NCBI GenBank assembly: GCA_030704615.1
Contig: CM060733.1
Location: forward strand, 56,544,001 to 56,608,000
From: Takakia lepidozioides
Lineage: Eukaryota; Plantae; Bryophyta
Length of the DNA stretch: 64,000 nucleotides
Direction: 5' to 3'
Below, piece after piece: positions 1,852 through 36,040 of this stretch. A program made the translations under genes and the position numbers. The first letter of the stretch is position 1; each line of letters begins with the position of its first letter. Below the pieces are notes generated by a model, which was given only the letters and a program-made list of their open reading frames with translations, had not been told where the DNA came from and ran no database searches.

Positions 1852-3171
1852 TCATACTGAAATTCTGATATTTGGTGAAAAGGAAAACCTAGTTTCAAAA
1901 ATGTCCTTCATGTCATAGAAGTTGCCTTTGATAGGCCTCTCCCATACTCCACTAGAAATATCATACACTGCCACTCGCATATCATATGCATAAGTGACCA
2001 CATAGATCCGCATACCATCAGCACCACTGCCGTATATTGCCCCCGTGGCCTGAAGAAAGTCTCTGTCTTGATACTGAGCTATTTCGATCCACTTGAGGGT
2101 GTTTGGCTCCAGCTCGAAGATTCCAACACTTGCAAGAGGTAAAATCCCACCTTCCAGGTGACCACCCACCATATAAATACGATCCCCACAAGCTACAACA
2201 TAAGGGTAGTTCTCAAAACCTTCAGGGAGGGGAAGAGGAGTTTCACTCCATACTCTCCTATGAACATTGAATAGCACAACTCTATATGAGCCAGTGGTCG
2301 AGTTACGAGCCACACAGTACAACCACCCTTTGCAATATGCACCAATCTTCAGAGCAAAGTCAGGGGGTAATTTGCCAGCCACCTTCCACGAGTTTGAGGC
2401 TGAGTCATAGACTTCAGTGCTCCTGTAACCATCCTCAGATTCCTTGTAGTTTGCATTGCCTGCAAGAATGATGGTGTATGAATTTGTCAGTTCATCCACC
2501 AACATGTGGGTTACGACTGGGGTGCTTGAATTCCAACTCAATGGAGGTAGCTCCTTCCACCGTTGCGTCATAGGGTTGCATACGAGGATGCGACGTTGCG
2601 TCATAGATACTAGGATACGACGGACTTCCAATGCTCCGAAACACAAAAGCCCCCCATGTGCTGCTATCAAATTCCAGGCCCAATTTCTGGCCGCGGTAGG
2701 AAAAGAGAGAGAGGGCATGCCAATCCATTTCTCATCTACGAGATCATATGTCGACCACACCAGAGAGGATGTGGCACCCTTCCAGCCGAGACGAGGCGAA
2801 TAGTAGCGACCCCAGGATATTGGAGACTCCGCCGAAAACTTCTTGAATTGGTTGCAGTGGATCAAAGAATCCCACCTCCTACATACGCTGCGAACTCGAT
2901 AGACGTAAGGGAAAGGAAGATATGAAACCACACGCTCCAGTAAGTCAGATGGCAGGGTACCCCACAAGGAGGTCTCTACAGGCAAAGGCCTGGAGATGAC
3001 ATCCAGCCTGCCCATGGCTGTCTCAGAACTCTCGATACATGCACAGTCCCCTGGACTGATCACAGCACACTCATCATCCACACTCGTTGCAGCTGGTGTA
3101 CTGCAGAGAGGCTTCATATCTTCCCCCCGACATTCGTCGATGTGGTATCCCTCACTCGATGCGGCTTCCAT
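1852..3171 (-). CDS. F-box/kelch-repeat protein
   Basis: F-box LPSDLLERVVSYLP...RSVCRRW is followed by kelch-like blades (HGGLLC, VCNPMTQRWKELPP, TEVYDSASNSW, IYMVGG); intact 439-aa ORF. Confidence 0.9.
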   Translation of the reverse strand: MEAASSEGYHIDECRGEDMKPLCSTPAATSVDDECAVISPGDCACIESSETAMGRLDVISRPLPVETSLWGTLPSDLLERVVSYLPFPYVYRVRSVCRRWDSLIHCNQFKKFSAESPISWGRYYSPRLGWKGATSSLVWSTYDLVDEKWIGMPSLSFPTAARNWAWNLIAAHGGLLCFGALEVRRILVSMTQRRILVCNPMTQRWKELPPLSWNSSTPVVTHMLVDELTNSYTIILAGNANYKESEDGYRSTEVYDSASNSWKVAGKLPPDFALKIGAYCKGWLYCVARNSTTGSYRVVLFNVHRRVWSETPLPLPEGFENYPYVVACGDRIYMVGGHLEGGILPLASVGIFELEPNTLKWIEIAQYQDRDFLQATGAIYGSGADGMRIYVVTYAYDMRVAVYDISSGVWERPIKGNFYDMKDIFETRFSFSPNIRISV

Positions 3172-4359
3172 GATCCGTCTACAAATCTGCCATACGGTAA
3201 TCGATCCACAGATGCAGTACTAAGCAGGATGCCAACGAGGGTGATTGTAGCTATTGATAGGACACATTCACAGCTACACTGCTCAAAAATCGCTCTACAC
3301 AGAAATCCCCTCGCTGCCGCATTCATTGGCAGGCACACTCATACATGTCCATGGCACAGTCAAAGCTCGTTTTGTGATGCACTCCCATTTTCCCACATCC
3401 CAAATCCTTGATGACGGACGACAACAAAATGCCTAAAACCCACGCATTGTAAGGCTGCTTTCTACAGTCATGACACCCAACACGAGATGAAATGAAAAGC
3501 AAAGGGGCTCACCACCACCTTCTCCTCGCGCTCTCAACCCTACTCGCCCATCCCTGAAAAAGGACTGCAATGATGATGTTCAGGAGACGAGATCCGCAAC
3601 CCCTTCAACAAGCTCTCAGACACAGACGAGCACAGACTGAAGCAAGCCCAGAATCCTAAACGCCCCAACTCGATCGCTCCCAGTAGCAAGAACTAACCGC
3701 AAGCGAGATTAGACCTCAAAACGCTCGCAACCTGGGCAATTCAGCCATGAATGCATCCCACTGCGAGATCCACAGAGGAGCAGACACGTTTGCGAGATTT
3801 GAGTAAGACTCCGAGTACTTGTAGTCCTGGCCAACCAAGCTGCAGTGCGAGTGGATAAATATAGAAACCATACAAGCTTGTCAGCGCAAACAACTCCCTC
3901 CTCTACCTCACCGTCCTAAGACTTATAAGCTCACCAAAAGCTTCCACATCTCCCGCACCACATCCCCAGCACTTCCGCTGACTGTGAAACACATCCACGT
4001 GAGAGCCCTCAGACCTCCGTCAGCCCCACATCAGCCTCAACCCTAAAAGGTATTCTCTCTCTCCTCTCCTGGCCCCATTCGCATCATGTCGAGTGCTGCA
4101 GTGCACACGAAGCACGATGGTGGCTGCATGTTTCTTCAGACTCTGCGATCGTCACTCTGCCGCCATGCTTCTCTTACAATTCTTCTGTTTTGCTCTGCAA
4201 GATTGCCCGTCCAGGATGTGCCCTACTTCCCTCCCTTTCTCATTCCTTCTCAACAATCTGCACGACCACACTCCATCCGGACTGCCATTTTGTACCTAAG
4301 TATTGCAGTGGATTTTTTTCGGATTTTGCTTGCTGCTTTCTCAAGAATTCCAAGAATCT

Positions 4360-7004: not shown

Positions 7005-7505
7005 TTTTTTTTATGTTTTTTTTTTTTATGTTTTTTTAAAGGGATGAGAGGACCAGAAAATTTATTAAAAAGGGAAAAAAATTAAACCCTTACAATTGCC
7101 ATGAGGCTTAACACACGGGACCGTGTTGGAGATTCCAACGATCAGTGAACAGGGTAGAAAATAGACCTGACTACGCATGCAGCCCTGGTAGACCCATCTA
7201 TTATTGGTTGCAAGAATTGCCCATAGTGCAGAGAGCTAATTTGGGATTAGTTCATAGCAGTGAAAAACTCCATGAAAGAGAGGTGCCTATTGTAGAGGGA
7301 ACCGAACGGAACGACAAACAGTAAGAGCACAGGCCAGAACGTCCAAGGAGCGAAACTCTGAAGATGTCTATCTGAGGAAGATCAACTTAGATTTAGATCC
7401 CCTCTTTATGTGCTTCCAGTTAATATCTCTCGAGTCCAGATCAGGGGAGGCTGAAGACGGTGCCCCATCGGTGTTTCCAAAGTTCAGGTATGGAGTTTGC
7501 CCATG
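7005..7505 (-). mobile_element. L1-like LINE 3' end (last ORF2 codons, 3' UTR, poly(A) tail)
   Basis: The minus strand ends AATAAATTTTCTGGTCCTCTCATCCCTTT followed by an A-rich tail (7005-7037). It appears to continue the ORF2 fragment at 19760-20040 across an inversion junction. Confidence 0.6.
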
Positions 7506-8454
7506 TACAACGGCCAAGCTTTTCCTCAAGCATGTCTACAGAATCCATGACTTGCCATCAAATATTGTGTCTGATCGGGGACCTCAATTCATGTCAAGTT
7601 TTTGGAAGGGACTATTTGAAGTTCTACGGGTACAAATCAACCTCTCTTCAACCAATCATCCTCAAACAGATGGACAAATCGAGAGGGTAAATCAAGTTAC
7701 TATTGGAACAATACCTTTGTTGTACAATTAACTATCATCAGGATGATTGGGTAGACCTCTTGCCTCTGGCCGAGTTTGCGTATAACAACATATATCATGC
7801 ATTGCTTGGACACACGCCTTTCTTTGCAAATTATGGGCGACACCCGAGGTTCGATACTCTCGCGTTCGGAAAAACAAACAACCCTGCTGCTGTAAGTCTT
7901 GCAGAACGATTGATTAACATTCAGACTTAGGACCTCAAAAAACGATTGAAAGAGGCCAAGACCGTTATAAAGATCTAGCTGACCGTCACCGCGCACCACA
8001 CCCAGCCTATAAAATTGGAGATCGCGTCTGGTTACTTCGTCGAGATTTACAATCAAGATGGCCTTCAAAGAAACTGGATTATCGACGACTCGAGCTATTC
8101 ACCGTCATTGCCCAGGTAAATCCAGTTGCTTTTCGGCTACAACTCCCAAGCTCTATGAAAGTCCATCCAGTATTTCATGTATTGATTCTTGAACCATTTT
8201 ATGAATCTATCATTCTTGGAAGACATGTTCAACCACCTCCACCAATCGAGATTGATGGCGAAGAAGAATTTGAGGTCGAAGCAATCCTAGACTCTCGACT
8301 ATGTCATGGACGCTTGGAATATTTGGTCCATTGGCGTGGGTATCATGTCAGTGAACGAACGTTGGAACCATCATCCAATATCACTAATGCATCCCAGAAA
8401 GTTCAAGAATTCCATCACCGACACCCCTATAAACCTCGAGCCACGCGTCGATGA
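7506..8454 (+). mobile_element. Ty3/gypsy chromovirus 3' half: integrase core, GPY/F region and chromodomain (frameshifted)
   Basis: IVSDRGPQFMS, HPQTDGQIERVNQ, LPLAEFAYNN, VHPVFHV and chromodomain EFEVEAILDSR...YLVHWRGY. Confidence 0.92.
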
Positions 8455-10412
8455 ATTATTAGACCGTCCAACATTAATAGCCGTCAAAACTTGAAGATGA
8501 AGCCACCGCCTTTGGCGCATAATAAGAAGGAGAGAGCACCAAACAAATAGACATCTTGAGGTGGTGGAGTTGTCACTAACAGACATTACCATGGCATCAC
8601 AAGAACCAGAAGAACTTTCATTTGCTCAACTAGATTAATGGTGTTACGCATCAGTAGCAACGTCAGAATATGTTATGGAGATGCAAGCACAAACAGAAGA
8701 AGATGATAATGTTGTTCCAATTGGTGAAAGTGAGACTCAAAACGATAGTATTGCGAATGATCATAATACACTGATAGAGTCAGATCCAGATTACATTCCA
8801 GCTGGCGTTGAAGGGGCCAATCCATTTGGTGAAAGAACAGAGATGAACCTTGTGGATGGATTTCATTATACTACGAATGGACGACGGTTTTGACAAGACC
8901 TACATCTTCCAGTTACTGAATCGGAGGTGGAACGTTATGGCACACAAGCAGGGATGCGATGGATACAAACGGTACATGACCAACTTACATTAATACATGA
9001 GCCGTTTTAAGTCCTCATGAATGTTACTCCTCATCCATGTCATACATCTGTTTGGGAAGTGGGGATTGTTACCCTTGATCAACCAATATCCAGCGGTTCA
9101 CATTTATCATTGTTTTCCCATTAGCTCCCTTTCCCGTGCTATGTTGAGATCGGGGAGAGGTTCCCATGCTTGAAATAGCGAGTTGTCGCGTTGTTCTGAG
9201 AGTCGTCTGCTGGCGAGATCCTCCAGCAAGATAAGCATATTTTCCTGCATTTGCTAGTCAAATTAACGTATGTGACGTGCAGTCTGCATTGTCTTCTGAG
9301 CAATGCCGACAGATGATCCATCAATTTCTGGGGGTCGCCCCAAAACAATAAAAACCCTCCGACTTCCTTGAAGACAGCTAGAGGATCCGATGTAGGGATG
9401 ATGGCAAGATAATTGAAGTACTTCGATCATTTGTCCGGCCATGACTAGATTCACTATGTCTGATCATGTTGATGCTTTCAAGATTATGCATGAAATGGCC
9501 CAGAACTCTCTACGTACGCATATTCCGTGAAATCCTAGGTAGGCCTCATGCTAACTACTTTGAGAATCCTCATCCATGACGATGTACCGTGATATTAATG
9601 AAGCCGTCACAAAAAAGACACATGTCCATTTTATGTTTGCACACGCCAACAACCCAAAACAGCCGCGTAAAGGAACAGCTGTCCCAATTAGGTTACGCCA
9701 TTTTCACTGAAAACATACATTCATGTATCGGACACACAAGAGGGAATCCGACGGTTCCAGGGACACTCCCAAAACGACGGAACCGCGTAAGAAAGCGAGT
9801 TTGTTCATCTTTCTTGTTTCTGCACGCAGAGGAAGAGAGGTAGTCAAGCTGGAGAGGGTTCCTTGTTCGGTTCGGAAGAGAAGGAAGTCATTGTATTTTA
9901 CATCGCTTAGAGAGAGGCTGAGATCAAGAGTGTAAATGACGAGGCGTCGCATACAAGATGGTGCAGCGCTTAGGCAACATGTGAACTTGGAGACATGTCA
10001 AGCAGAAGAGCATGTGGGAAGTGAGAGTGAGGTCGCCGCAGTCGTAGCGACGGCTGGAGCAGTGAGCGTAGGTAACCAGACAGTGCCAGCCGAGTTCATG
10101 CCCGAAGACAAGAGAACAGGGGGAGGAGCAGAGGACGCCATACAGGGAGGAAGTCTCCAAACCCTACATCATACAGAATTGGTGAGCACTCCATATCCAC
10201 ATACTACTGTTTTCATTAGTCTTGATGTTTTCCCTTCCATGTGGGATTCAATAACATGTATCTTGTGTTCAGACCGATGAAAAATGGAAGAGGAAAGCAG
10301 AAGAGGGCGATCCGAGCGATGCAGCCATGAAGCCGAAGAAGGCGAAGGGATCCGTAAGTTGTCTCACACGCACTTCTTTTTCTTTACTGATGGTCCCCAG
10401 ATGTGAGAAAAA

Positions 10413-11515
10413 CGATGATCGGTGGCGATCATCGCTTTACATAATAATATAGTTGGTGTTGTAGTTCAGCAGATTCTGGAAGGCAGGCAGGCAGGAAAAT
10501 ATACGTTTCACGGCGAAAGTGATGATCGGTGCCGACCATCACCTTCGCCATTGCTTTATTTAAGCATAGAATGCCAATTTCATGGTGATGCAAGAGTGTC
10601 AGGGAACTTAAGTCGCATCTTGCAATGACGTAGAAGCTATGATCGGTAGCGATCATCGCTTTAAGGTCCATTCCCTTCTTGTTCAAACCAGTTTGGAAAT
10701 GGCGTGGTCGTTCAGGAAAGTGATGATCGGTGCCGACCATCACATTCAGACCTCATGGTTTGTGCATCCCACGGCAGTTACATTGTGATGGTCGGTACAG
10801 ATCATCACTTTCTGTAATGACTGGATATTACCCCAAAATCCAAAATCGCAATGCAACCCTTTGTAGAATGAAATGCTTTAGGTTGAAAAATGTTCATCCC
10901 ACTTCTTCAGATCTGGAATTGCAGTAACAGAAAAGCGAGCTTCCAAGTCCATTTCTTTGCTCTAAATCTCATACAATGAAATGCAAAATTCTGTTGGAAA
11001 GTGATGGTCGGTGCCGACCATCACATTCAGACCTCATGGATTGTGCTTCCCAAGGTAGTCTGATTGTGATGATCGGTACCGATCATCACTTTTTGAACTA
11101 ATTGGGCACTACACCAGAATCCAAAAGAGGGGACCAACCCTTTGCATACTGTAAAGTTTTAGGATGTAAGAGGTCTAGATAATTCATAGGAGAAATCGCA
11201 GTGACACAAAAGCGATGATCTGTGGCTGTCATCGCTTCCAGGTCCATTCCTTCGCTAAAAAGCTCAGTGAGTGAAAGAAGGGATTCTATAAAAGAGTGAT
11301 GATCGGTGCCGACCATCACATTCAGACCTCATGGGTGTGTGCATCCCAGTGCTGTCTTCTTGTGATGATCGGTACCGATCATCGCTTGCATCATCCTGAT
11401 GGTCGGCACCAATCATCGCAGTCTAGTGAGAACTGAGTCAACGTGCATTGGGAAACCAACTAAATTTTCCATTCATTTGTTAGAAGGCAAAGTGATGGTC
11501 GGTACCGATCATCAC
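10413..11515. repeat. Intronic array of 12 copies of the 24-bp palindrome GTGATGATCGGTACCGATCATCAC, partly within ~280-295-bp tandem units
   Basis: Copies start at about 10413, 10519, 10636, 10720, 10785, 11001, 11066 (perfect), 11212, 11296, 11362, 11396 and 11492; the higher-order unit recurs at 10720, 11001 and 11296. Confidence 0.93.
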
Positions 11516-13427
11516 TGTTTAAAAATGTATGTTTCCAGAACACCAGTTGAATGTTGCTCTTGTGGGTCTTGGGTATGCAGAAAAATGTAAAGTCTAAGCA
11601 GAGAGAAACAGAAGCAAAGGGCTCTGGAGAAGGGGACGACTCCACGAAGAGTTCTGAGTGCAGCGAAGACACAGACGAGCCTGAATTGCAATACCTTGAC
11701 AAGGTGAAAGAACTTATGTCATATCAAAAGATAAATTCCCAGGAGGTTATTAGGGACATAATCGTCTTTGAAGGACGTCTTGAAATCCCTCTCTGCCGGA
11801 TGATCTCCATGCCTGTTGTTCGTCCTCCGCTTTCGCATGACATTACCAAGTTGGAAACAGATTTCGTGCACGGGTACAGAATGGGTGCACAAGTTTTCTA
11901 CGTATACAAATGGTAACAACACAAAAGTGAGCCCAGAGATAACGGACAACTGGGATGATTGCTGGAAGGATGTGAATGACGAGTTCGAGGACTCCCTGCT
12001 ACTTGGACATAACACCCAGCAGTTCTGCAACCACATATTCTATGTCTGGGACGGGAACCAGCGTTTGCTAGCTTGGATGGGGTACATTGCGAAACACCAT
12101 TCAAAAGACAAAGACAAGCATTGTGCAATGGAGGCAATGGTTTTGGATCCTGGGAACGACATCGCGAGACTTCTGACAGCTATGCATGACGTGAACAAGT
12201 AGGACATCCTAAAAATCCCATTGCCTTTCAAATTGCATGTTGTGCACATTTCAAGTCCAATCGTAAAATATTTCTTACCTATGCAATGTGTATTCCCTGT
12301 TTGCAGATCGACAGAGAAATCACATGTTACTACGAGCTTGGTCCACACACTTTTCCGTATTCAGAGAATTGGTTTGATGAAGCTTGATGAGTTCCGCACA
12401 GTGCTAAATCCTGATGTAATCAAGAAGTGCGAAACATGAAGGGTTGCAGGGACCTGGTACTCGTTGACCCGAGAAGCATTTCTGGAGTACATGTATGCGG
12501 TATGGCCCAACCCACATCTTCCTGTCTTCTTCAAAACAAATTTGTAATCCTCTGTGTTCTAATCCAATCGTTGTTACATGCAGCAAGAACTAGCAGAGGC
12601 CGCTGAGACGGGGAAATTTGAGTACTACCGCACTACTGTAGAAGAGCTGAGGACTGCTAAAGGTGTTGGGGCAGCCATAAAGAAGGAGTACGAGATAAGG
12701 AGGACGAAGCTGATGTTCGCCTTCCTGAAGCAATTGAGAATAGTGGATCTCGGACTTGGGGAGGAGTTCCTTCTCCAAATCAAAGCCCACTACGAAAGCA
12801 TGTACATCCAGAGATGCAACAGGAGAAATTGCACAGGCTGGCTCTCTCCATGGCCGACCCCCAGACAAAAGTTAGATGGCTTGAGATTTGAAACTCGGAT
12901 CAAACGGTGAAGGATCTGAATCAGTTCCCAAAAAGCACAATCCAGCCTGGCACAAAGGTCGAGGGAATAAGTGACATTGTTTTTTATCAGTGGCTTCACA
13001 AGGCCACATTTTGGAGTCAGGTATTTGTGGATTCAAGTGCCTATTGTATATGAATTATCCTATGGCTTTGTCGTGCGCAATTCTGATAGATGTTCCCTTT
13101 GCAGCTGGAGAAACGCGCCATTCTTGTCCTGGAGCAGAATTTGAAGGACTTGAATATTTCGATGGTCTCACCACCATAGATGACCTTGGAGGCGTACATT
13201 AGAAAGTGGAAAGGTCTCACGTGGCGGTACTGTTTCTTCCGCGAGTTCTCCAAGGATGGTAACATATTGAGGTCAAACAATTTCGACAGTCAAGTTGGAG
13301 GGGAGTGGGCGATGATGCGTGTTGTGTACAGGTGCAGTACCTCAAGCCTATCCATCACATTCTTTGAAATTTTGTCATGCCTTATTGAGAAAAGCTTAAT
13401 ATTTTTTTTCTGCTACAAAGCAGTTTG

Positions 13428-13683
13428 GTGATGGTCGGTACCGATCATCACTTCCACTACTCTGATCTTCTCCCGTCAAATGAATGAATACTGCAGATCA
13501 TGTCCATGTTTCCATTCTTAATCCTACCTCTATTAACATAGGCAGTTTGTTTCTGATGAATGAAGTGATGATCGGTGCTGATCATCAGATTTCCCAGTTG
13601 TACAGTGTAGATAATCATAAGGATTTGCCAACCCATGTTGCATTCTCTCTCATGTGAAAGTGATGATCGCCACCGATCATCAC
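13428..13683. repeat. Three further copies of the 24-bp palindrome in intron 13332-13738
   Basis: Copies at 13428-13451, 13565-13588 and 13660-13683. Confidence 0.9.
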
Positions 13684-14651
13684 TTTCTACTGCTTTTGAT
13701 ATCTTGTTTTGGGGGTGGTGTTTGTTTGAGCGTTCGCAGGTACACTAAATATGTGTTGATGGAAGGAAAACACCTGAGTGGAATCCCAGATTACCTGGAC
13801 ATGTGGTTCGACCCTACCATCGATCCCACCATGTACACAGCTGGTATCTTGAGGGACTGGAGTCCTGCCCATTTCAGGGACTGTGGATGGTACCTCGACT
13901 GCCCTCCAGAGCACACGACATTTCAAGAGCAGCAAATGAAGTATTTGAACAACCATGCGGAGATGCTGGCACCTTTGAACGACGAAGAGTACTAGAGGAA
14001 CATAGCTTCATTGGCCGGCAAGGAACCAGACGCACAGGCAACTCCCTAGAAAGGCAGGAAGGGGGGTCGCTAGGTGAAAGACAAGGATCCAAAGGCTTCG
14101 GAGGTTGATTTCTTTTCTTAATCTGGTAAGAATCTTTCTCTTCACATGGGACATTCGAAATTGTCAATGCCAATGTAGATGTTGGTTTCTGTTGGGACCC
14201 TCATTTTTCTTTGTATTTAAATTGGACCTGTATGCTGCAGGTGAGCACTGGTCCCTCATTCGTATGCGGTGTTCAAAAAACCTTTGCCGCTGACATGGTC
14301 ATCCTTGACATCCAGATGGCCAGCCTCTCCCCGACGTTCCTCCAAAGGGAAAGACTCCATCCTGGAACAGATTCGATGAGAACTACTGGAGTTGGGTATT
14401 CGGGTTCTGCAATAATTTCCTTTCAGATGCAGGAATGCTTTTGCTCTTCCAGTCATGTGACAAAGATAGTCGTAGGGACAGGCATCATACCTGAAGTCGT
14501 CTGGGTTTGAAATTCTGAGGACATGGAATTGTGTGAACATCCTCTACCTTCTGAAAGGTGGTTGCCCTGGATAGCTGGTATGGTACCACCCTCCTCCGTA
14601 CTGTTCCCAATGTCTTCTTGTTATTTCTGCTGGCTTGCTCTACCACCATCT

Positions 14652-14675
14652 GTGATGATCGGCACCGATCATCAC
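14652..14675. repeat. Single copy of the 24-bp palindrome in the intron starting at 14558
   Basis: GTGATGATCGGCACCGATCATCAC. Confidence 0.88.
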
Positions 14676-16029
14676 AAATACATTCCATTGTAGTTTTCAT
14701 TTGCAGTCCATGTTTTGTTCCTTCCTGCGCCGGACTTCCTCCAATATTTCCATGTCTCACCCCTACCTTGCATATTTGCCAAACGAGGATGTTTGAGGCA
14801 ATCTGCCTGAGGAGGATTCGCATCTCAAAAACACCATCCTCCATCCGCAACTTTGAAATTTCCGACCAGGGGTGTTTCATCAACCCCCCCTATGAACCGC
14901 ATGTGGATGACATGCTCTACAATTTCATGCACTCCAGTCAGATAGCCAAAAGACCAGATGGGTTTCCGTGGAGAGGTGCAAGGGAGAGAACCCCAACGTT
15001 CATGCAGATGCTTTTGGAGTCATGCAACCACCATTCTGCAAGGGTGGTCGACCTCACACTATCCACAGGTTCGTTGGTTCAATACTGTTCCCATTTTCGA
15101 GGTCTTCCAGTTTGCATCCGATACAACCTTCTTGAGGCTTTCTGTCTTGGCAGGTGTGATTTATCGTGCTTGCAAGGTTGGCGGGAGAAGCCTTTTTGGC
15201 ATGGAGGGCGACACCGAACTATTCAAGAGTGTCCTCCTCCCTCTTGTGTCTGGCTCTACGTCTGGCACACAGACTGAACAAATTCAAATCAGAAATGATG
15301 AGGATACTGAGGATAAGCAGATCGACAACGACTTTTCATGTGAGTAAGTGTGCCATGGAATTGTCATTCCAGTTTGGGTGCTTGTTCAATTTCGCAGACA
15401 TCAAATTTGCAGTAATAACTTTTATCATGCTGTGACTTGCGGGAACGGCAACGATGGAACTTCAGGAGAAACCCCCATTTGTGGCGAGACTGTTTTTGAT
15501 AGTTCCCTTTCCACTTTTATGCTTCCTGTGTATGCCGAAGCAATGACACTTCAAATGGCCGAGGCTCTATCCCCTGACTTCTTATTGCTCGATCGCAGGT
15601 GTATCCATCGTAGATCCGGAGTTCTTAAATTCTTGGACTTGGATGTAGAGGACGCGATGATACATTGTACTGACTTTGAGTCTGAACTTTGCAATGTCAA
15701 TCTTCATGAATCCATCGCACAAACCCCTCACACTCATGTCATATCCATTGTGTATTCATCTACTGTGTATTCATGCATCCTCCATTCAAGAATGTTTTCA
15801 ATTATTCAACATCCATTGTACATTCATCCATTGTACTCTCATCCATCCCACATTCATCCATCTGCTTGCATTGTTCCCACACATCCATCTATTTCTCATC
15901 CACTCTACATTCATCCATCCTGCATTCATCTGTTGCTTTCAGGTGGGAATGACCACGTCCTTTTATTATTTCGTCCAACTTGTTTCCGCGGTTGAGGGTG
16001 CTCTTCCACGGAAATACACTCTGCTTCTT

Positions 16030-16150
16030 ACTTGGCGCGCGTTTAAGCTCGATGACGTGGAGTGAGCCTGGTGATGTGGCGTTCACTCAAGGTGATGTGG
16101 CGTGAGCGCTGTTGCGCTCACGCCGAGGCATACCTGGAAAACCTCTAGGG
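16030..16150 (+). other. Candidate transposon terminus (GC-rich motifs and a perfect 11-bp hairpin)
   Basis: GGTGATGTGGCGT occurs twice; hairpin GGCGTGAGCGC-TGTT-GCGCTCACGCC at 16099-16124; then GGAAAACCTC and CTAG (16145-16148). No matching left end was found. Confidence 0.4.
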
Positions 16151-16174
16151 GAATTGGGAAAAAAAATGACGTTT

Positions 16175-16813
16175 TCAAAGTACACTTTTAGCGAATACGG
16201 TGTTTGCCATTCTGCATCTTGTCGAATTGATTAAGGTTGAAAGTGAATCCCACAAACGCTTCATCTTATCATCACAAAACCCTAAGAACTTTTTCCAAGC
16301 CTCGATGTCTTTCGTGAGTCCTTGTAAAGTCCATTTCCCATACATAGCTGGAGCATGTACCAAGACCTCTTTCTGCTCTTTGTGTTCTTCCTCGTCAGAA
16401 ATATCTAGCGCACGTATCAATTTCCTCTCAGCACCACCATTGCTTTCCAAAGTCTGGATTCTTCGAAGAGCATCCCTGTTCGTCCATTCTGCAAACACAG
16501 CCTAGTTCACAACTCTATTTTTCTTCTCACAATCAATGCCCCGTGCAATAGTTTTGATAACTAGGTGGGAAGCTGGAACAATTGTGCGTTGGTGTGTTAT
16601 CATCCAAATCTGATCTACACGAGCTATCAACCGTGAATCTGCAAGGTTGAAGAGATAGCTACAGCCATTCTTATTCACTAAAGGCCCAAACAACTTGGCT
16701 ACCTCATTTTCGGTGCAGTCTCTATCTATTTTCAACCGCCTTGGAGAAACTCCATCATTGCAAAGACCGTAAGTCCCCAAGCATATGGTCCATCTCGACA
16801 TAAATGTAAACAT
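16175..16813 (-). pseudogene. TE-associated hypothetical protein fragment with an in-frame TAG (probably from TGG)
   Basis: ORFs 16502-16813 and 16175-16498 are in one frame, separated by ...RVVN*AVFAEW; the pattern resembles the hAT cargo ORF at 32673-32999. Confidence 0.45.
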
Positions 16814-19759: not shown

Positions 19760-20040
19760 ATAAAATTCTTGGGCTTCCATCCCCATTTAAAAATAAATGT
19801 TCCGCTCGGCAACACTGTGGCAAATCTGGAAGGCTCGTTGCAGATGGACATTAAACAATGCTTCCTCCTCCTGTACAAAAATCCTTGCTTGTGTTTTCTA
19901 TGATGTTACTATTGCAGCTAAGTTGGCCCGGCAAAAACTATGTACAGAAGCAGACAGGAAACCAGAACGAAAAGATTCCCTCCTCGCCTCCTTTAGAGCA
20001 TCTTGGGGAAGAGGAGGAATCATTTGTTGCATCATTGATA
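19760..20040 (+). mobile_element. L1-like LINE ORF2 C-terminal fragment
   Basis: LWQIWKARCRWTLN matches the plant L1 W.IWK.R motif; it breaks off at the inversion junction near 20040. Confidence 0.65.
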
Positions 20041-20041
20041 C

Positions 20042-23000
20042 GGACTGCTGACAGACTTGAGGGTTGGGATAAAATGTGCCATTTTTGCTAGGCGGTCGAC
20101 CACGACAAGAATAGTGTCAAAAGATTCAGAGCAGGGGAGATCTGTGATGAAGTCCATAGATAATGATGACCATGGGCCCTCGGGAATAGACAACGGCTGC
20201 AGCAGACCATATAGACAGTGATGTGGTGCTTTTGCTCGGGTACATGTATCACAAGTGTGGATGAATTCCTTTACCAACTTCCACATTTGTGGCCACCAAA
20301 AATCCCTTGAGATAAGCTCGGATGGTTTTAGTTATACCAAAATGACCAGCTGATGGAAGGTTGTGTCGTGCTTGAAGAACATGCAAGCGAAGTGGTCCTG
20401 GGTGGTACATAAATGAGTCCCAATAGTGGATAAGGCATTCTGACTCCTGAAATGCGCAATCTTCGTTCGTTCTTTGGCGTAGACGTCGTCTTATATCCTT
20501 CGCAAAATGATCATTTTTTAGACTTCCGCGAATCTTTGCAAGAAAACTCGTATCAAGAGGAATTTTACTTTCTATTGACATGAGACGCAATTGTTCTGGT
20601 TTCAGAATGATGGACTTCTGTTGATCGAATGCAGCACCTCCTTGTTTAGGAGCCAGATATGATCGGCGTGACAGTGCATCTGGCTTCCCCTGTTGGCTTC
20701 CTGGACGATAAACAATGATGAATTCAAAGTGAGATAGAAACATACCCCATCTGGCTTGTCGACGATTAAGTACTAGAGCATTCATGAAATATTCGAGATT
20801 CTTATGGTCGGTGTGAACTATGACCGTATGCCGAGCTCTTTCAAGAAAATGTCGTCATTCTTCGAAAGCATCGATGATTGCTAAAAGCTCTTTATCGTGG
20901 ATTTCATAGTTGATTTCTGCAGCCGAAAACTTCCTCGAATGGAATCCCGCAGGATGCAGTCGTCCGTCGTCTAAAATGGGAGCTGTAGTAAAAACGTTCT
21001 TCAATCTCTGGAAGGTTTTTGAAGCATTGTCGTCCCACTTGAATTTATCCTTTCCTATAAATCGTGTTAGGGGTGCGGCAACTTTTGAATAGTCCTTGAT
21101 GAAGATCCGATAAAAGTTTGCAAACCCCAAGAAACATTGCACGTCCCGGACCGAAGAAGGTGTATGCCAATCGACAATGGTTTGGACTTCCTTAGGGTCC
21201 ATTGAGATTCCATTATCGGAGATGATGTAGCCCAAGAATTCAACCTTCGACTGGTGGAAAAGACATTTTTCTAGCTTTGCATATAGTCTTTTCTCTCGTA
21301 ATTTGTCGAGGACGAGACGGATGTATTTTTCATGGTCTTCGGAATTTTTGGAGAATATCAAGATATCATCTAAGTAGATGACTACAAAGTCGTCAAGAAA
21401 TTCTCCAAATATGTCGTTCATCATATGCTAAAAAATTGTCGGAGCATTTGTAGACCAAATGGCATGACGTTGTATTCAAAATAACCATACCTTGTACGGA
21501 ACGTTGTTTTCCATTCGTTGCCTTCTTTAATTCGTACAAGGTTGTAGATACCCCTCAAATCGATATTTGTGAAGATTGTGGATTGACCAAGTTGTTCTAG
21601 AAGCCTTGAAATCAGCGGTAACGAACATCGATTTTTTATCGTGATTTTGTTGAGACCTCGATAATCCACGCACATTCGTAGAGTTCCATCTTTCTTTTTT
21701 ACAAAGAGTATTGGTGCGTCGGCAGGTGATTTAGAATGTCGTATGAAGTTTTTCGAAAGATTTTCGTCAATGTAGCTGCGTAGCTCCGTCAATTCATTTT
21801 GGGAAAGGTTGTAGATGGGTCCAAATGGTGGTTGAGCTCCTTCTTGTAGTTCGATCGCACAGTCATAGGGTCGATGCTGTGACAACATGTTAGCGTTGTT
21901 CTTTTCGAACACGTCTTTAAAATCATGATACTGTGGCGGTAGTGTTTATGTGATTTTGTCTTCCATATTTTTTGCAGGCGTCGCATAGATCATGAAAGAT
22001 GTACCTGTCTTCGTAGCTTGTAGAAATGCTCTTGCCCCCAATGAGTTTTGGTCGAATGAATCTCTGTCTTTGACGTTGTTTAGTCCTTGAGAATATTTTC
22101 CCTGTAGGCCAGTCGATATCTGGATTGTGTAAGTTAAGCCACGACCGCCCCAAGATTATTGGGTTCGAAGGTGATTTGATGATGTTGAGCACAATATTTG
22201 ACACAAATTCTCCGTGGTGTACTTCAAGAGGTTGAGTCTCCTGAGTCACGTCTCCTGAAGCGAGGGTACATCCGTCGATAACTTCACAAGTTGCAGAGTT
22301 TTCTTTCTTCATCGGCTCCAAATATTCTTGTTGAGCAAATTCTTTGTTGATGAAACATGGTATAGCACCACTGTCTACTAAAGCTTCTATATGTATTACG
22401 CGTCCTGTGATATGTATATCTATAGGGACCATGAAACTTGATACAGGGTCTGGGGGTAGGAATAGACCCTTTGTCTTCCTTTGATTCGTATTGCCCAGCC
22501 GCAAGGTCCCTATTGGGGCTGGACAACCTTGTTTTCCGCCTGGTCTGCTCCGTTGGTAGTAGCTATGCTTCGAACCTTGTACGTTCTTTTGTTGTGACAC
22601 TTGGATGCAATATGTCCAGGTTCTCTGCAATATAAACAAAGTCCTAGCAGTCGGCGACGCTGTTTTTCTTTTGGCGTGAGAGGTTTGAATCGCACAACAT
22701 CAATCTGCATAGGTTCGTATTCTCTCGTTGAACTGCTGGGTGTCGTTTGTGGAGTAGGAGGTAGGGTCGTATTGGGCGTCCAAAGGATCCGAGTCTTTCT
22801 TGTCGTCTTTCATATAGTTGATTGTCGCAGGCAATGGCTTGGCTAGTGATCTCCCTCAAAGTGGCCACCTTCAGCATGGTAAGCATGAGATCTTTTACAT
22901 CGTCTCGAAGTCCCCAACGAAATTGACTGATGTAGTTGTTTTCATTCCAATTTACATCGCATGCTAACTGTCAAAATTTTGTAGCATAGGTTGATGCAAG

Positions 23001-23340
23001 GCGAGCTCCTTGTCGTAGAGTTCGAATTTTTGTATCGGCAACTCTTTCACGATCAACTTCATCAAACGTTGCATTAAACTCCGCAAGAAAACTTTCAAAA
23101 TCATAAAGCAATGGTGCAATGGTGCAAACCATGACAAGGCGGTTCCTGAAAATAAGGTCCCTATCAATCCAACCTGGGAGGCACTGTCAGGGTACCGGTC
23201 ATGTTGCAAACGAATGAAGAGCCATACTTGTTGAACAAACCTTCGAAATTTTGAGCTTGTTCCATCAAACTTTTCAGGCATGCTGACATTGGGTTCTTTT
23301 GTTCGTTGTTGTACTGTTGCTAAGGAAGTTTCTCGGGAAG
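20042..23340 (-). mobile_element. Ty3/gypsy chromovirus (Tcn1-like) gag-pol 5' half, degenerate
   Basis: Gag MPEKFDG, zinc knuckle CLYCREPGHIASKC, protease ALVDSGA, RT ([12 protein letters not shown]), RNase H (YEIHDKELLAI), integrase HHCC ([10 protein letters not shown]...CDTC) and SMDFITDLP, truncated at AHFIPTLKSVSSP. Confidence 0.95.
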
Positions 23341-23499
23341 TTTCCTAACCGCTTATAGACGAAGTTTCTTAAGAAGTTTCTTTATTTTGCAGGAAGTTTC
23401 TTGGGGAGTATCCTAGCTAGCTTAGGGATCTTCTAGAAGGGTCTAGAAAGTTATAGAATGAAGTTTCTAGAAGCTTCTAAGAAGGTCGCAGATATATGG

Positions 23500-24953
23500 T
23501 GTAGTTTTATTTAATATGTCTGTGCCATAGGGTACATGAACCACCATGTGGAATATACCTTGATATGATCTCGGCTATGAACACCCAGTGAATGTAGCAA
23601 GCATTTGTGGATGTAGTTATAGATGCATCGAAGGAGAACGACAAGAGCTCGACACAATGATAATGAGCCTTCTTTCCTGTGGAAGGAACGTAAAAAAGAA
23701 GGTATTTTAGGTGAGTCTATGCATGAACGCCAAGTGACGCGATTTAAACATATGATATCTTTTGGTGACTCATTTTGATTACATGTGAGCAAATGATTGG
23801 TGTTGGTCCCTAGATGTGTTGACTAGGGGTGGTGTATATACACCACCCATAGGGGGGGTGGGTATACACTACACTACCTATTCCAAATACTATAATTACA
23901 CCCAAATATAGACAAATCAACAAATAATCATCATTAATGCATTAAACAAATTTCAAATTTCAAATATATGTACATTAATTATGGTGCTTTCTTATTGGCC
24001 TATATAGGAAATACACACATATCCCAAATGCTCTTGCGAAGATACAAGGACTATGCCTTCACAAATCGTGGTGACCCCAAGTCATTTTCATGAATTGCAG
24101 TTGGAGAGTTGGAGGCTAATGAAATGGAGCAAAGAGCCCAAGCTTCGTAAGAAATCTATGTAACTCGACATTATTTGTTCTAGGTGAGTACACTGTTGGG
24201 GCTTCCAAGGGGTATACACTACCATATTGGGGTGGTATGTGCACACCACCTTATATGTACATGTATATTGAGGAGAGGGTTGGTGCGTGCACACCACCCT
24301 ATTTCTATATATACATATTGAGGATAGGGGTGGTGTACACACATTACCCCATACAAATAATATAAATACAATAGGGATAGCACGTGTACACCACCCTGCA
24401 AGAAGCATATGAGAATTTATATACTTCGTTTCAAATACAAAAACATACGCTAGAGAGAGGGGTATGGTACATGAACAACCCCGTTAAACATACCTTGATA
24501 TGATCTCGGCTATAGACACCCAAAGAGCGTAGGAAACGTTTGTAGATGTAGTTGTAGATGCATCTAAGAGAGAATGACAAGAGAGACACAATGATAATGA
24601 GTCTTCTTTCCTGTGGAAGGAACATACAAAAGAGGGTATTTAAGTAAGTCTATGCATGAACGCCAAGTGACGTGATTTAAACATATGATCTTAATATCTT
24701 CTAGCGGCTCATTTTGGTTACATGTGAGCACATAATTGATGTTGACTGAGGTGTTGACTAGGGGTGGTGTAGTTAGAAAATTCCACAACACAATAATCAT
24801 TAATGCATTGGGCATATTTCAAAATTCAAAGTTCAAAACATGAATGTACATGAATGTACATTAATTATTATGCTTTCTTATTGGCCTACATAGGAAATAC
24901 ACACCTACCCCAAATGCTCTTGCAAAGAAGGACTACGCCTTCACAAATCGTAG
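23500..24953. repeat. ~940-bp tandem repeat in the gypsy 5' leader (unit 1 and the start of unit 2)
   Basis: TACCTTGATATGATC anchors at 23556 and 24491; unit 2 is interrupted by the hAT and resumes at 40242. Confidence 0.85.
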
Positions 24954-25159
24954 CCTAGTTATCATTCCTAACTTGACGTGGCACTGACACGTCCGAAGTG
25001 CGTCACGTCACGTCGAATCCGGACGTTTATCCATGCAATTTTTTTTTACATTTGACTTTTACGATTTACTTCTACACTTTGTAATGACATGGCAGCCACG
25101 GTGTAAAACAGACGTGGCCAATTATTAAAATTTATTAATTCTTAAAAAAAAATATGTCC

Positions 25160-25895
25160 ACCTATATTGGCGGTCGCATATAATTTATGATTTTAAAGAT
25201 AAAAGCGACCGCCCATATTGGCGGTCGCTTGTAATTTAATATTTTGTTAAATTAAGCGACCGCTTATAATAAGCGACCGCCGGTAATTTATTTATTTTAA
25301 AATGAAGCGACCGCCCATATTGGCGGTCGCTTGTATTGTATTATATTTTAAAATAAGCGACCGCCTATATTGGCGGTCGGTTAAAATTTATTATGTTTTA
25401 AATGAAGCGACCGCCCAGATTGACGGTCGCTCGCACTTTATTATATTATTATTATTATATCCTTGATATATTCTGTAAAAATACAGCGACCACCATGTGG
25501 CGGTCGCTTATTTTTATTTGTGTTCTTAAATAAAGCGACCGCCGTTTGGCGGTCGCTTCTTCAGTTAATTTTTGAAAAATGCAGCGACCGCCATTTTGCG
25601 GTCGTCGCTATTTTTGTTAATAAAGAATACAGCGACCACCATTTGGCGGCGGTCGCTCGATTTGATTTTGATTCTTAAATTAATCGACCACCGTTTGGCG
25701 GTCGCTTACTTAATATTTTTTTTTAAATGAAGCGACCGCCATTTAGCGGCGGTCGCTTATTTAATATTTTTTAAAAAAAAACAGCGACTGCCATGTGGCG
25801 GTCGTTCTTCTTGTTTTTATAAATATAGCGACCGCCATGCGGTGGTCGCGTGTTTTTTTTTTTCTTAGAAATCGAGGGACTCGCCGTGTGGCGTT
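25160..25895. repeat. Palindrome array A: AAGCGACCGCC-N4-6-GGCGGTCGCTT in AT-rich spacers
   Basis: More than a dozen copies; lies upstream of the kinase gene. Confidence 0.92.
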
Positions 25896-26481
25896 TTTTT
25901 TTTAATTTTTTAATTATGAAGCGGCGCCTGACTAGCCACGTGGTGAGGTGCCACGAGTCAGGAAAAACTAAACAAATGCGATGGAGGGAGGTGGTTTTGA
26001 ACCCTTGACCTCTCCCATGTGGGTGCGCGGGGCGAGGTGCGACTGGCCAATCGTGCCGCGCTGACACATGGTGAGGCGCCACTGGCCTGTCGCTCATTTT
26101 CAAGCATAATGTCATTTTTTTTTTTTTGGGGGGGGGGGGCTGATGGGCGCCTCTATAAACCATTCCCCCCTCCTTTTCTGATCACTTTTGCCCCTCTCGT
26201 GGTGTGGTTCCTTGGCATCCTATAGTCATTTCGGACTTCGTTGCTTGGTACTGCCAACGGGAGGTGCAAAGGCGATTATTTAGGGGGGGGAGAGAGGTTT
26301 TGTCAGTTTTCTATTGGTCAGTCCCACACACTTGTTCACGGTTCAATCATCGTATCACCATTTTGCCGTTTTCGGATCTCCGGCGGCCTGTTTTTTTGCA
26401 GAAACTACAAAGACACCATCCACACGCGTTCATTGCCGTTTTCTGAGGTTTTGGACCCTGTAGTGGGCAAAGGTTTATACA

Positions 26482-27935
26482 ATGTCGGGGGTTGTGAATT
26501 CAAGTTCTGGGGCGGGGTCGTCTGGGGGTCGGAGGAAGAGAAAACGTGCCCACGAGCGGGATAGCCAGATCAACAAGCCAGACTACCCGGGACTGGATGC
26601 CTTGGATAGGGTGAAAGAAGTGGTAGTGGATTATTTCAAGGGTAGGGACATGATGAGGCTGGAGAGTGCTTATGTCAGGCATGGATGGGAGGGGTTTCAG
26701 ATTTTCCAGCAAAATATGGAGAGAAAAATGACAAACGCTTTGGCGGGGGCTAAGTGGACGACAAACAGGGACAAACCAAAGTTCAATCGGTGGATCCAAA
26801 GCAAGGCGAAAGACGCCACATGGAATTTGAGGTAGCTAATGAAGACATGGAAGGGTAGAGCAACCGAGGGTCGAGTGCCCTCCGCCAAAGCTGAGTTAAT
26901 GCGGCGTGTTGAGTATTGGGCTTACTCGGCAAGTCAGAATTCACATCGCCGGACTAGGGTTGTCCCTTGGAAGGTGGGGTCATCGGGCGGGGGAGGCACA
27001 ACTGGTCTTTATTACCTGAACTCTACTGCGAATGTGATAGAGATTGGCCCTCACAAAGAAGGAGGGTATGCTAAGGTCCGTCAGTGTAGGATTGTTGGCG
27101 ATTCTAGAATACCGGAGCGTTGGGAGCTAGCGGGAAAAAAACCCAAGTCCAAAAATCCAGAAAAGGCGTTGAAACAACATAACGACGAGTGTTTGGCAGT
27201 GAAGTTCCAACATCCGGGTGTTATCTCATATTTTGCTGTGAATGCACGTGAGGTAGAGGGTTACACTCGTTGGTGGAATGGGGGAACAATACGCGACATG
27301 ATGAACCTTGACAGAAAATGGGACAACGATTCGGACAACAGGGTGATTTTGGAACAAAGGGGAACGGAAGCAAAGTTCCAGGAATGCGATCGCTTGCTTC
27401 GTTTCCGGAAAGTGCGCAGTAAACTTGCATGGGCACTAGTGTGCATCATGGATGTTGTCCACAAAAATGGTGTCCTGCACAATGACTTGTCCCCCGACAA
27501 CATCTTGTTGCATTTTCTAGATGACACCGAGGAGATCAAGATTGGGGTGTGTGATTGGGGCTTAGCCACCCCATTGGGCATACGCAAAGTCTCGTCGTAC
27601 CAGTTTGAAAACCAAGACAAGCTGGACCGAGAATTCGCGAAAAGATGGTGGGTGAAAAAAGATATTGCATCGGTTTTCAATGCGAATGTCACCCCCTCCT
27701 CCCAGGACATGACGTCGGAGGCATTTGCCTTGGGAAGATAGCCGTACGAATAAATGACGGCGCTCATTATGATCAAAGTATGTTTGAGGACCAATTTACG
27801 GGAGGTTGTTGGCATTCAATGCTACAAAGGTTGTACGACAACAACAAGAATGAGAGAGTCACATTAGCCCATATAGTACTTCGGTTCATGGGCAAGTCAT
27901 TCAGTTGGCCTGAAGACGTATATAGGACGGAGTAG
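26482..27935 (+). pseudogene. Intronless protein kinase with a basic NLS-like N-terminus (hAT cargo); one in-frame stop and one frameshift
   Basis: EGGYAKV Gly-loop, LAGK lysine, HNDLSPDN catalytic loop (27478-27501), DWG (27553-27561). The 26482 and 26839 ORFs are in frame across TAG 26833-26835; a frameshift near 27733 restores SEAFALGKIAVRI; N-terminal RRKRKR. Confidence 0.88.
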
Positions 27936-28017
27936 ACCATAGTCTCATAGATATGAGATTTGTGCAGTACAATGGTTCTTTTATGAAGACATAACTCAAT
28001 TTTGATCGTGCATGTAA

Positions 28018-29566
28018 TAAATAAAGTCCCATTGTAAATACTACATTGTATATGCTCGACCTTGGCACTTGTTATCGCAACATAAATGGTTTGTGTACTG
28101 GCTCATTGTTTGTATTTGTAATGTTCCAAGGTTTCGGATAGAGTTATGAGAAAACGATGTATTAGTTCCGTAAGAGTTAGACAACAAACGTCTCACATCT
28201 CATTCAACTGTGCGACACTACCATGAGAGGCATGGATCGGAAAGTAATAGGTGCACATGCGACCTCCGAACATTCGATACTAGATCCAGCGAATGGTTTA
28301 CTTGAACGTCTGAAGGTCGCATGTACACCTATTACTTTTTTATCCGTGTCACTCATGGTAGTGTCGACATTTGAATGAGATATGAAACGTTTGTTGTCTA
28401 ACTCCTATGGAGCCAATATATCATTTTCACAGTACCCTGTTAGAAAACATTGAAATATTCGAAGTTACAAACAGTGCCACAATACATGGCCGGTTTTGTT
28501 GAAATGACATCTGTGAGGTTCGAGCGTATGCAATTTATTATTTACAACGGAACTTTATTTACTCGGGGGACCGGTACTTTTGCTGGAGTGCAACTGATGG
28601 TGCAAGTTCTCTATTGATTAGAGCTGTCACAACCAATGTCAACAATCATATTTACGGTAAGGTGTTTCATGCTATTGTTGTTTCTCTGGCTGAATTCTGT
28701 AGTACTCTTTTTGCTATTCCCATGCCAACGTCCTCTGAGACTGTCATGTTCAAACGAATGTATCAGCCACCCCGGCCAACTTGTAGGCTGCAGCCACGGC
28801 CCACCTTAAATTGAATGAATTGGAGATTTTGTGCGAAGTTCCTAGTTTCATGTCCGTGGTGGCTGATACGGAATTCGGAATATGGTAGTCGCAGTGGACC
28901 TGATGTTGTTGGCATGGGAGTAGCAAAATGATTCCTAAATAATTCAGCTACATGAACATCGGCAGTATGACACACCTTGCAGTACATATAATTCTTGAGA
29001 TTGTTTGCACGGATTATTTGTGTTTGTGCTTTCAAGTGACAAACATTCCCGCCATGGTACAGAAGAGGTGGATTGGCCACATTAAACGATTGATGTGATA
29101 CCATTTCACAAATGTATCACATCGTACTTGTGAAAATGTATCACATGAACCGTTCTATGTGGCCTACGAGAGTCTTCGATGGGTACGAGATCAATGTGGC
29201 CTACGAGATCTGCTTCCACCAACAAACATGTGATCATTTCAGAAGCGCTTGAACTTTGAAGCGACGATGGGCAAGGTTCTTCATCCAGATGTTCAACATG
29301 CTGAGGTCTTCTGTAATGTCTCTTGCTTCGTAATGAGTGCTTCCCCAACTCTTATTTTCCAATGTTGATTTTCTATCTGGAACATATCCACAGATGCGTA
29401 TATAAAGGCTTAAAAATCCAAATGACCATCAAAACTGGAAGCTGGGGATGAGGCTTATAAAAGTGGAGATGGTCATTTGCTTATTTAAAGATTTCTGCAC
29501 ACATGTGTGGATCTGTTCCAGGTGGAGAATATCAACATATTGGATAAAGTGGACATAGAGAAGCAC
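28018..29566. other. Cluster of four consecutive long imperfect inverted repeats (candidate hairpin-RNA/pri-miRNA locus)
   Basis: Foldbacks at 28018-28561 (loop ~28278-28301), 28630-29007, 29075-29164 and 29337-29566; arms aligned by eye against their reverse complements. Confidence 0.8.
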
Positions 29567-29639
29567 CGTAACTACAAAAAGAGCTTCAAAGGGCATACTA
29601 TGTAACAGGTCCCAGTATAACCGAAGACGAAACCCCATT

Positions 29640-31008: not shown

Positions 31009-31461
31009 TTTTGTGCTTTGAGAACTTTGTGGGTATGTTTGTAGAAAGATCATAGATTTTGCGAAATGATTATGCAATACGCAGGGACCAGACGAAATTT
31101 GTTTGGAAGACGACCATTCGTAACTCGTTATAACTTATTGGTTAACATCAATTTTTCTTGTTCTCCAGCTTTCGGAGTTCATTGCAAATACCCACATACA
31201 CGTCATGGCCAAATATGACACCATTGTAAATTTGTTTACAGGGTGAATTACTTCTTCCCCATCACACGAGTGTAAATGTGAAGAAAACGCTCTCATGCAA
31301 TTGAAATTGGCAGGTGCTGCACATGTGCATTGTGTATTAACAAAATTGGTGATATACAAAATTGGCGAAATGCCATCACTGTGTTTTCCAACAATATTCA
31401 AGGTACAACAAAAATGCACATTGTATATGTACTTCGTTGCCAGTCATTAAAAGCTTAGTCG

Positions 31462-36023: not shown

Positions 36024-36040
36024 CCTACATCTGTTTTGCT

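Follow-up and report, generated by a model that had tools for sequence, protein, structure and literature searches.

Why should a gene of a moss mobile element carry palindromes in its introns, and which protein, if any, would read them? The question is raised by a 64,000-nucleotide stretch of the Takakia lepidozioides genome (GenBank assembly GCA_030704615.1, contig CM060733.1, positions 56,544,001 to 56,608,000 of the forward strand), referred to here as the window and numbered from its first letter. In it, a broken gene that combines a ParB-like with an amino-methyltransferase domain (9936–15347, plus strand; hereafter the ParB-methylase gene) holds 16 related 24-bp palindromes. The motif is real and selected, and it lies inside an element of the ParB-methylase kind whose copy here is dead. 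The protein that joins the two domains is likely the product of an accessory gene of a many-copy DNA element, and the palindromes are probably binding sites, as yet putative ones, of the protein that the surrounding gene encodes.

Sixteen palindromes lie in three introns

The 24-mer quoted for these sites in a preliminary description of the locus is a perfect palindrome and is matched exactly once in the window, at 11066. Twelve copies were found at 3 or fewer mismatches to it, a number reached in 0 of 100 shuffles, 15 at 5 or fewer and 16 at 7 or fewer; at 7 mismatches the simulated null had a mean of 0.07 and a maximum of 1 over 30 runs. The total of 16, its division into 12, 3 and 1 and the coordinates given in that description were recovered, but to call all of them copies of the quoted sequence was too strong, one of the 16 being exact and the rest degenerate. 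Intron 2 contains 12 sites (10412–11515), which start at 10412, 10519, 10636, 10720, 10785, 11001, 11066, 11212, 11296, 11362, 11396 and 11492; eight of these lie within three copies of a 281–296 bp unit, and an 18-bp deletion near 10938 has reduced a 13th site to a collapsed remnant. Intron 6 contains three sites with unrelated flanks (13428–13683; starts at 13428, 13565 and 13660, spacings of 137 and 95), and intron 8 contains one (14652–14675). It had been claimed that exons and the rest of the window are free of the motif, and the mismatch-tolerant scan agreed: all 16 sites are intronic, no further full palindrome was found outside the three introns across the 64-kb window, and a single half-site was seen at 54254.

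The motif had been described as two GATC sites around a GGTACC core; the weight placed on GATC was not supported. Both GATC sequences are intact in 7 of the 16 sites, GGTACC is intact in 4 and both features in 2. The GATC adenine is among the variable letters (A in 23 and G in 9 of the 32 halves), which argues against a Dam-like methylation target, and this candidate was rejected.

Over the 32 halves the half-site consensus is AAA-G(T/C)GATG(A/G)TCGG(T/C), with an invariant ATG. Judged by the similarity of their flanks, the 16 sites represent 11 separate contexts, eight of the intron 2 sites tracing to the tandem unit. Between duplicated units the palindromes are identical at 45/48, 46/48 and 64/72 positions (89–96%), against 102/153, 47/66 and 78/121 for the flanks (64–71%); the Fisher p values for palindrome versus flank (1e-4 to 6e-4) refer to windows picked around the sites and to pairs that are not independent. 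Positions 2, 7 and 12 vary (T/C, A/G and T/C) alike on both arms, and in 3 of the 16 sites, all of one lineage, position 7 shows a non-pairing A-C mismatch. In all 11 contexts a pyrimidine-purine step forms the centre of the site, though this would be the loop if the site were a hairpin, and 27 of the 32 halves retain the core CG, compared with an observed/expected CpG ratio of 0.43 in the introns. Stable hairpins were predicted for 6 of 7 sites tested (z −3.3 to −5.7), as would be expected of any palindrome. The independent spacings of 107, 117, 84, 65, 146, 34, 96, 137 and 95 are near whole 10.5-bp turns; 9 of 10 independent spacings fall within a quarter turn of whole turns (p = 0.013, post hoc), and the lone exception, 216, spans the site collapsed by the 18-bp deletion. 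We counted this helical spacing as modest evidence because it was noticed after the fact. Contig joints indicate that other copies of the element carry palindromes in differing unit arrangements. On their sequence features, the palindromes look like double-stranded protein sites.

The ParB-methylase gene and its relatives

The gene was modelled with 10 exons on the plus strand, at 9936–10181, 10273–10353, 11581–12198, 12307–12499, 12584–13020, 13105–13331, 13740–14125, 14241–14577, 14783–15068 and 15154–15347, of which exons 1 and 2 were placed solely from the open frame and splice signals. The model is collinear with M758_1G295400 of Ceratodon purpureus, an apparently whole protein of 1,147 amino acids that was found by a profile search and aligns along window positions 11686–15296; splicing improved the match to this protein from E = 7e-40 to 2e-78. 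The introns run GT..AG, with one acceptor decayed to CAA. The copy in the window has at least six in-frame stops and at least four frame changes and is therefore dead.

The palindrome-bearing introns 2, 6 and 8 measure 1227, 408 and 205 bp, and the remaining introns 84–115 bp. Intron 6 (13332–13739) is supported by homology, since the Ceratodon protein, when aligned to the window, leaves a gap there. Intron 8 (14578–14782) is skipped, with the next intron kept, in one contig of a run guessed to be RNA; its acceptor at 14782 is the one that reads CAA here, and it reads CAG in other copies. Intron 2 (10354–11580), placed by splice signals only, has GT..AG ends and is the least proven of the three because it lies upstream of the region that can be aligned to the Ceratodon protein.

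An initial word-based search gave no homologue. Searching 1.84 billion representatives with one exon returned 202 clusters at E ≤ 0.001; the ten long matches checked were all Adiantum proteins, and the ten short ones were 'hypothetical' or nameless. A quick tree on 85 of 166 sequences, the other 81 being omitted as too short, placed the window's domain and the Ceratodon protein in a 44-row group (support 95), apart from 8 named fern rows; this placement and the neighbouring genes together point to a moss-like host. Homology has shown the gene family to be present in moss and ferns (Ceratodon, Adiantum). None of 11 gene-region pieces was assigned to a Pfam family and none of 15 read-through frames came close to the Pfam cut-off, and scans with motif patterns found 0 stretches in metagenome contigs and 0 in viral contigs. 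Protein-led locus searches of the collections yielded no plant locus, the Ceratodon protein matched no viral contig, and a locus search of prokaryote genomes found none; a beta-lactamase-like bacterial contig returned by a locus search was a false match. One phage locus has a distant ParB-like domain; the repeats listed for it include no palindromes of this kind.

Predicted domains of the encoded protein

That the gene joins ParB-type and methylase domains, as the preliminary description had it, was supported by fold searches with models of relatives and by a PF01555 match in the Ceratodon relative. The models were of the relatives P0001 and P0161 (the Ceratodon protein M758_1G295400), not of the broken copy in the window. 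The ParB/Srx-like domain (11686–12198, plus strand; VRP, DGNQRLLA and HDVN) has a frameshift near 11900. For P0001, which is 57% identical to the window's domain, the AlphaFold2 model had a predicted local distance difference test score of 87.7. The top 12 ranks in Foldseek were Noc, ParB, PadC and Srx (probability 0.92–1.0, E 7e-3 or weaker), the top rows in a viral structure library were ParB-type, phage ParB proteins, and the top six of 48,161 chains in VIA-align all belonged to the ParB/Srx superfamily, the best being KorB with cytidine triphosphate (CTP; Z 7.7, root-mean-square deviation 2.6 Å, 94 residues). Because no single score is strong, the fold call rests on the agreement of the searches; the front domain is predicted to adopt a ParB/Srx fold. 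It gave no Pfam match, and a profile search found no relative of it by sequence in the PDB.

In a 90-row alignment the motif G-N-H-R-x-x-A has G in 81 rows, N in 87, H in 80, R in 70 and A in 77, and G..R..A is present in 69 of the 105 matches that show the strand, among 150 listed. The VRP arginine is kept in 48 of 56 and a distal asparagine, at the corresponding helix end, in 66 of 73. Judged by sequence order, the kept residues appear to match in position the GxxRxxA and EN motifs, which the accessible part of one study gives as the CTP motifs of ParB (PMC11229316). The roughly 350 residues between the two domains are helical in a moderate model (predicted TM score 0.42), and their Atlas matches were under 0.9 with nothing specific. 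Among the Atlas language-model neighbours of the ParB-like domain, clusters of fungal DUF3723 and of cnidarian proteins scored 0.95, and one that bears ParB_N scored 0.92; the DUF3723 neighbours had 176–179 shared features. As a lead only, the neighbours of P0001 residues 45–211 suggest that DUF3723 may hold a ParB/Srx-like domain.

The beta-class N6/N4 methyltransferase-like domain (14241–15347, plus strand) is broken at motif IV in the window. Its exons match P0161 and the family profile and gave no Pfam match on their own; P0161 scored 30.4 bits against PF01555 (cut-off 26.7). Motif IV precedes motif I in the Ceratodon protein, which is the beta-class order. In seven of the eight long relatives motif IV reads DTPF, DQPY, DLPF, DLPF, DLPT, DFPI and DVPF, so that DxP(F/Y) is found in five and DLPT and DFPI in two; the eighth showed no motif IV. 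Motif I reads DLSASTG or ELGAGTG. A sequence match in the PDB to the DpnA-type M1.HpyAVI was weak (E 0.053).

The host element

The gene had been assigned to a plant mobile element, and contig depth far above that of the flanks bore this out. The element (about 8974–16204) is a many-copy one, present here as a left-truncated, internally rearranged copy. On 8.4 kb, two public runs of one sample gave 2,804 and 3,674 contigs, mostly 80–99% alike, and the summed contig depth was thousands to tens of thousands inside the element versus 40–140 in the flanks. This pile-up and depth indicate many diverged copies, which is not to be read as a copy number. No RNA run was listed as containing the sequence, which carries no information about expression. 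The summed depth of the palindrome introns was not above that of the exons; depth cannot rank parts of the element and takes no account of short matches, so this was not used against a miniature inverted-repeat transposable element (MITE). The right end was inferred from contigs that stop at 16175 and a word overlap of 30 letters.

Other copies run on with unlike sequence before 8974. An internal junction, a deletion or rearrangement, lies at 9255–9257, with loose contig ends behind 9255/9256 and before 9257/9258. Between these points is a second gene fragment, a candidate transposase (8974–9255, minus strand; frames such as NAGKYAYLAGGS), that faces away from the ParB-methylase gene and gave no Pfam match of note. 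Contigs of 2.5–2.7 kb from two studies, guessed to be RNA, match 9197–9255 and extend on either side. When their loose ends were compared by hand, most differences fell at the third codon positions of one minus-strand frame, with a 5-letter gap here. The minus-strand region of the second gene was traced over 8974–9600. No terminal repeats, target duplication or transposase of the element were found in this copy, whose left end is missing, and the scanned frames of the truncated, decayed element gave no ParA-type Pfam match.

A plus-strand open reading frame (ORF) remnant (8592–8970), in a lower-copy repeat with a depth of a few hundred, is joined to the element at 8974. Past the methylase stop, an ORF-like high-copy stretch (15400–15950) without a Pfam match is followed by ATCC-rich 15-bp tandem repeats, and a different 24-bp palindrome lies close to the right end (16100–16123). 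The hairpin at 16100, with CTAG 30 letters on, was considered as a Helitron-type end and dropped; the repeat continues to about 16204, and the spacing and flanking letter of Helitron ends are unlike those found here.

A putative self-binding protein and competing explanations

If the encoded protein binds the palindromes, a dimer would use the helical region that follows its ParB domain to read two half-sites, AAA-GYGATGRTCGGY. A nucleotide, which by the example of ParB, Noc and KorB is probably CTP, would close the dimer, which might then stay on the element or spread along it. We regard a dimer that reads half-sites and is closed by a nucleotide as reasonably likely. Several dimers would sit on one helix face, to judge by the spacing of the sites. 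The methylase domain, where active, would mark the DNA of its own element with N4-methylcytosine (4mC) or N6-methyladenine (6mA), although such an active mark is possible rather than probable; alternatively, the bound protein may simply shield the element from host silencing by 5-methylcytosine (5mC). Anti-silencing as the purpose of the arrangement is held more tentatively still. Like VANC motifs, the sites would grow in number through duplication, both tandem and inverted, and we propose that they collect in introns because introns are free space inside the element. A complete working CTP clamp in seed-free plant transposons, with phased dimers, sliding, and 4mC/6mA writing that blocks host 5mC silencing, seems improbable as a whole. 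If true, no earlier case of a DNA clamp with a CTP switch would be known from a plant nucleus, and the protein would be an epigenetic writer that addresses itself. It would also represent one lineage of a pan-eukaryotic class, maybe including the Starship cargo DUF3723, with a private palindrome for each element family.

Several observations weigh against binding of the palindromes by such a protein. Motif IV of the window copy, besides being broken, may lack its aromatic residue. Scores across the three fold searches were modest (Z 6.4–7.7, E 2e-3 or weaker), and Srx, SerK and SbnI tie with KorB in VIA-align, the fold being found in non-DNA-binding enzymes as well. The first arginine of GERR is a histidine, and ENLQRE is reduced to one asparagine. 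The region behind the ParB domain, which was not folded alone, gave generic helical matches, none of them to a helix-turn-helix or another fold that reads DNA. The variable positions 2, 7 and 12 are all transitions, to which decay of methyl-cytosine could contribute, and the best period over 5–20 bp, 10.6, was not significant in an open-period test (p = 0.34). Finally, a ParB reader need not follow from the presence of such arrays, since a hAT element in the same window has another 24-bp palindrome in at least 23 copies but no match to the ParB-methylase family.

This adjoining 15.3-kb hAT element, with its palindromes in three arrays, also speaks for a reading in which the sites are bound by the element's second protein, perhaps itself a transposase, or in trans by a transposase related to it. 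A second minus-strand gene is present in the element, and helical phasing fits cooperative transposase binding equally well. Transposase sites, however, are usually subterminal, and the sites here lie within the introns of the ParB-like gene, 1.4–5.8 kb from the mapped ends, with none near the mapped right end. The subterminal argument is incomplete because the left end is missing, and we consider a transposase reader unlikely, although a recent preprint, in the part available, indicates that transposases can activate their own copies (bioRxiv 10.64898/2026.08.24.746577).

Explanations that need no encoded DNA reader were judged less probable. Neutral repeat dynamics, or a small independent MITE or satellite, would account for the eight of 12 intron 2 sites that lie in a tandem unit, for the 65-bp pairs that form larger fold-backs, and for the look of expansion of the palindrome-bearing introns, which are the sole long ones. 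It is nevertheless a quite unlikely account: conservation is much higher in the sites than in the duplicated sequence beside them, their 11 unrelated contexts have no carrier sequence in common, no target duplication was seen by eye in the 10-letter flanks, and the core CG is kept in most halves despite the CpG depletion of the introns. We hold it very unlikely that the sites act as pre-mRNA hairpins, whether in splicing control, as a small-RNA source or in autoregulation by RNA binding. Their confinement to introns and the stable folding of most of those tested would suit hairpins, the folding being what any palindrome will show. Against this, it is the sequence and not merely the pairing that is kept across the 11 contexts, the A-C mismatches at position 7 persist, the would-be loop keeps its dyad symmetry, the spacing follows the DNA helix, and the distances from site to splice site vary (56–107 nt).

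Relation to known systems

Binding of an element by its own ParB-type protein is already in print as a hypothesis, having been proposed for algal transposons. In Ectocarpus, Sola1-1_Ec32 carries a 1,104-aa gene with ParB-like and N4C/N6A methyltransferase domains opposite its transposase, and in the accessible text its authors put forward a group of accessory proteins that would each bind the element encoding them and modify it, and cite green and red algae (PMC12477816). The moss family resembles that gene, by the domains described there, in its size of about 1,100 amino acids, its ParB-like plus methyltransferase domains, its place in a mobile element and the second gene on the opposite strand; it differs in that no transposase was found here, and the portion of the brown-algal report at hand mentions no palindromes. 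PAG3 of red-algal Plavaka (EnSpm) elements combines a ParB-like domain with a 2-oxoglutarate oxygenase and is adjacent to inverted-repeat arrays; as far as that preprint was available, its binding to its own element is likewise a proposal, accompanied by a comparison with VANDAL (bioRxiv 2025.02.11.637652). Going by this description, PAG3 and the moss gene share an N-terminal ParB-like domain, the accessory-gene setting and inverted-repeat arrays, whereas the methylase of Plavaka is a separate gene, PAG2, and its arrays are adjacent and in tandem, unlike the partly dispersed sites in three of the gene's own introns here. The moss gene has the algal type of accessory design, a ParB-like domain fused to a DNA-modifying domain. 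For the ParB-type accessory genes of red and brown algal transposons, the consulted parts of these reports define or test no binding site.

Bacterial ParB, Noc and KorB, with their sites parS, NBS and OB, share with the moss family the predicted N-terminal fold, a GxxRxxA-type motif and palindromes with degenerate half-sites. The moss family differs from them in the lack of a matched helix-turn-helix, the absence of a ParA among the frames scanned, the methylase fusion, a fold insert of about 40 residues and the introns. Bacterial ParB-type sites measure 13–16 bp, against 24 bp here.

Few transposon anti-silencing systems have been worked out; the sources, as far as accessible, give VANC, and TnpA with some transposases (2026 preprint, as above). 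VANC motifs lie in introns and other non-coding parts and were multiplied by tandem repeats, according to the accessible portion of that work (PMC5735166). VANDAL elements are therefore alike in having an element-encoded accessory protein, intronic or non-coding motifs and tandem multiplication. By the same source, VANC motifs are non-palindromic and of 8–9 bp and their anti-silencing is demonstrated, whereas the sites here are 24-bp palindromes, and we have no evidence of homology. MpDN4MT1 of Marchantia and N4CMT of bdelloids are likewise beta-class amino-methyltransferases of bacterial origin in eukaryotes; as described in the parts of the literature at hand, they have SPPY and are domesticated host genes without a ParB domain, in contrast to the DxPF/Y of the ParB-methylase family. 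A helix-turn-helix of the ParB type fused to a methylase has been reported from chlorophytes and chytrids, and we rejected it as a member of this family since, in the accessible text, its methylase group is a different one (Iyer et al. 2016, PMC4738411). DUF3723 (PF12520) is conserved fungal Starship cargo whose function is given as not known in the available part of one report (PMC9156397); Pfam gave no match of the ParB-methylase family to it.

Literature searches found no land-plant report of the ParB-methylase design, although the Bostrychia, Ectocarpus and Iyer 2016 supplements may list moss or fern members. New here are the land-plant lineage, the sites in the gene's own introns, the definition of their consensus, helical phasing as a possibility and, in a moss used in the laboratory, a relative that is apparently whole. 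With the site consensus, its tolerated variation, the spacing and the apparently whole Ceratodon relative, the question of ParB/parS-type self-marking by eukaryotic transposons becomes directly testable. Should such self-marking prove true, it would also supply a pair of protein and site that could be programmed to mark chosen DNA in plants.

Other features of the window

The hAT-like element spans 15.3 kb (24954–40233) and is flanked by an 8-bp target duplication, AATCGTAG, at 24946 and 40234, its sole occurrences. It has short imperfect terminal repeats and a broken hAT transposase gene on the minus strand (36622–38444; Pfam DUF659 and hAT dimerisation), and it also contains a protein-kinase cargo gene (26464–27741) and a further broken gene on the minus strand (31462–33035). 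Its palindrome, GCGACCGCC-N6-GGCGGTCGC, is present in at least 23 copies in three arrays, spaced mostly by 50–52 bp; like the palindrome of the ParB-methylase gene it is 24 bp long with GYGA...TCRC ends. Two arrays of a 120-bp tandem unit lie within the element at 29637–31007. A paralogous empty site of the hAT insertion is seemingly present near 24060, and a third palindrome family, GGGGTGGTGT..ACACCACCC, was found at 23826–24400 and 40380–40740 in the repeat that the hAT element invaded.

Outside the window, the phage locus with the distant ParB-like domain (L002, 4893–10481) encodes a 1,862-aa protein that has an internal ParB-like stretch (YVWDGNHR) and other domains and lies beside a tRNA cluster. 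The rest of the window holds relics of Ty3-type retrotransposons (7276–8454 and about 20000–23350), broken PPR repeat genes on both strands clustered at 53700–60000, and at 1852–3219 what we take to be an F-box kelch-like gene.

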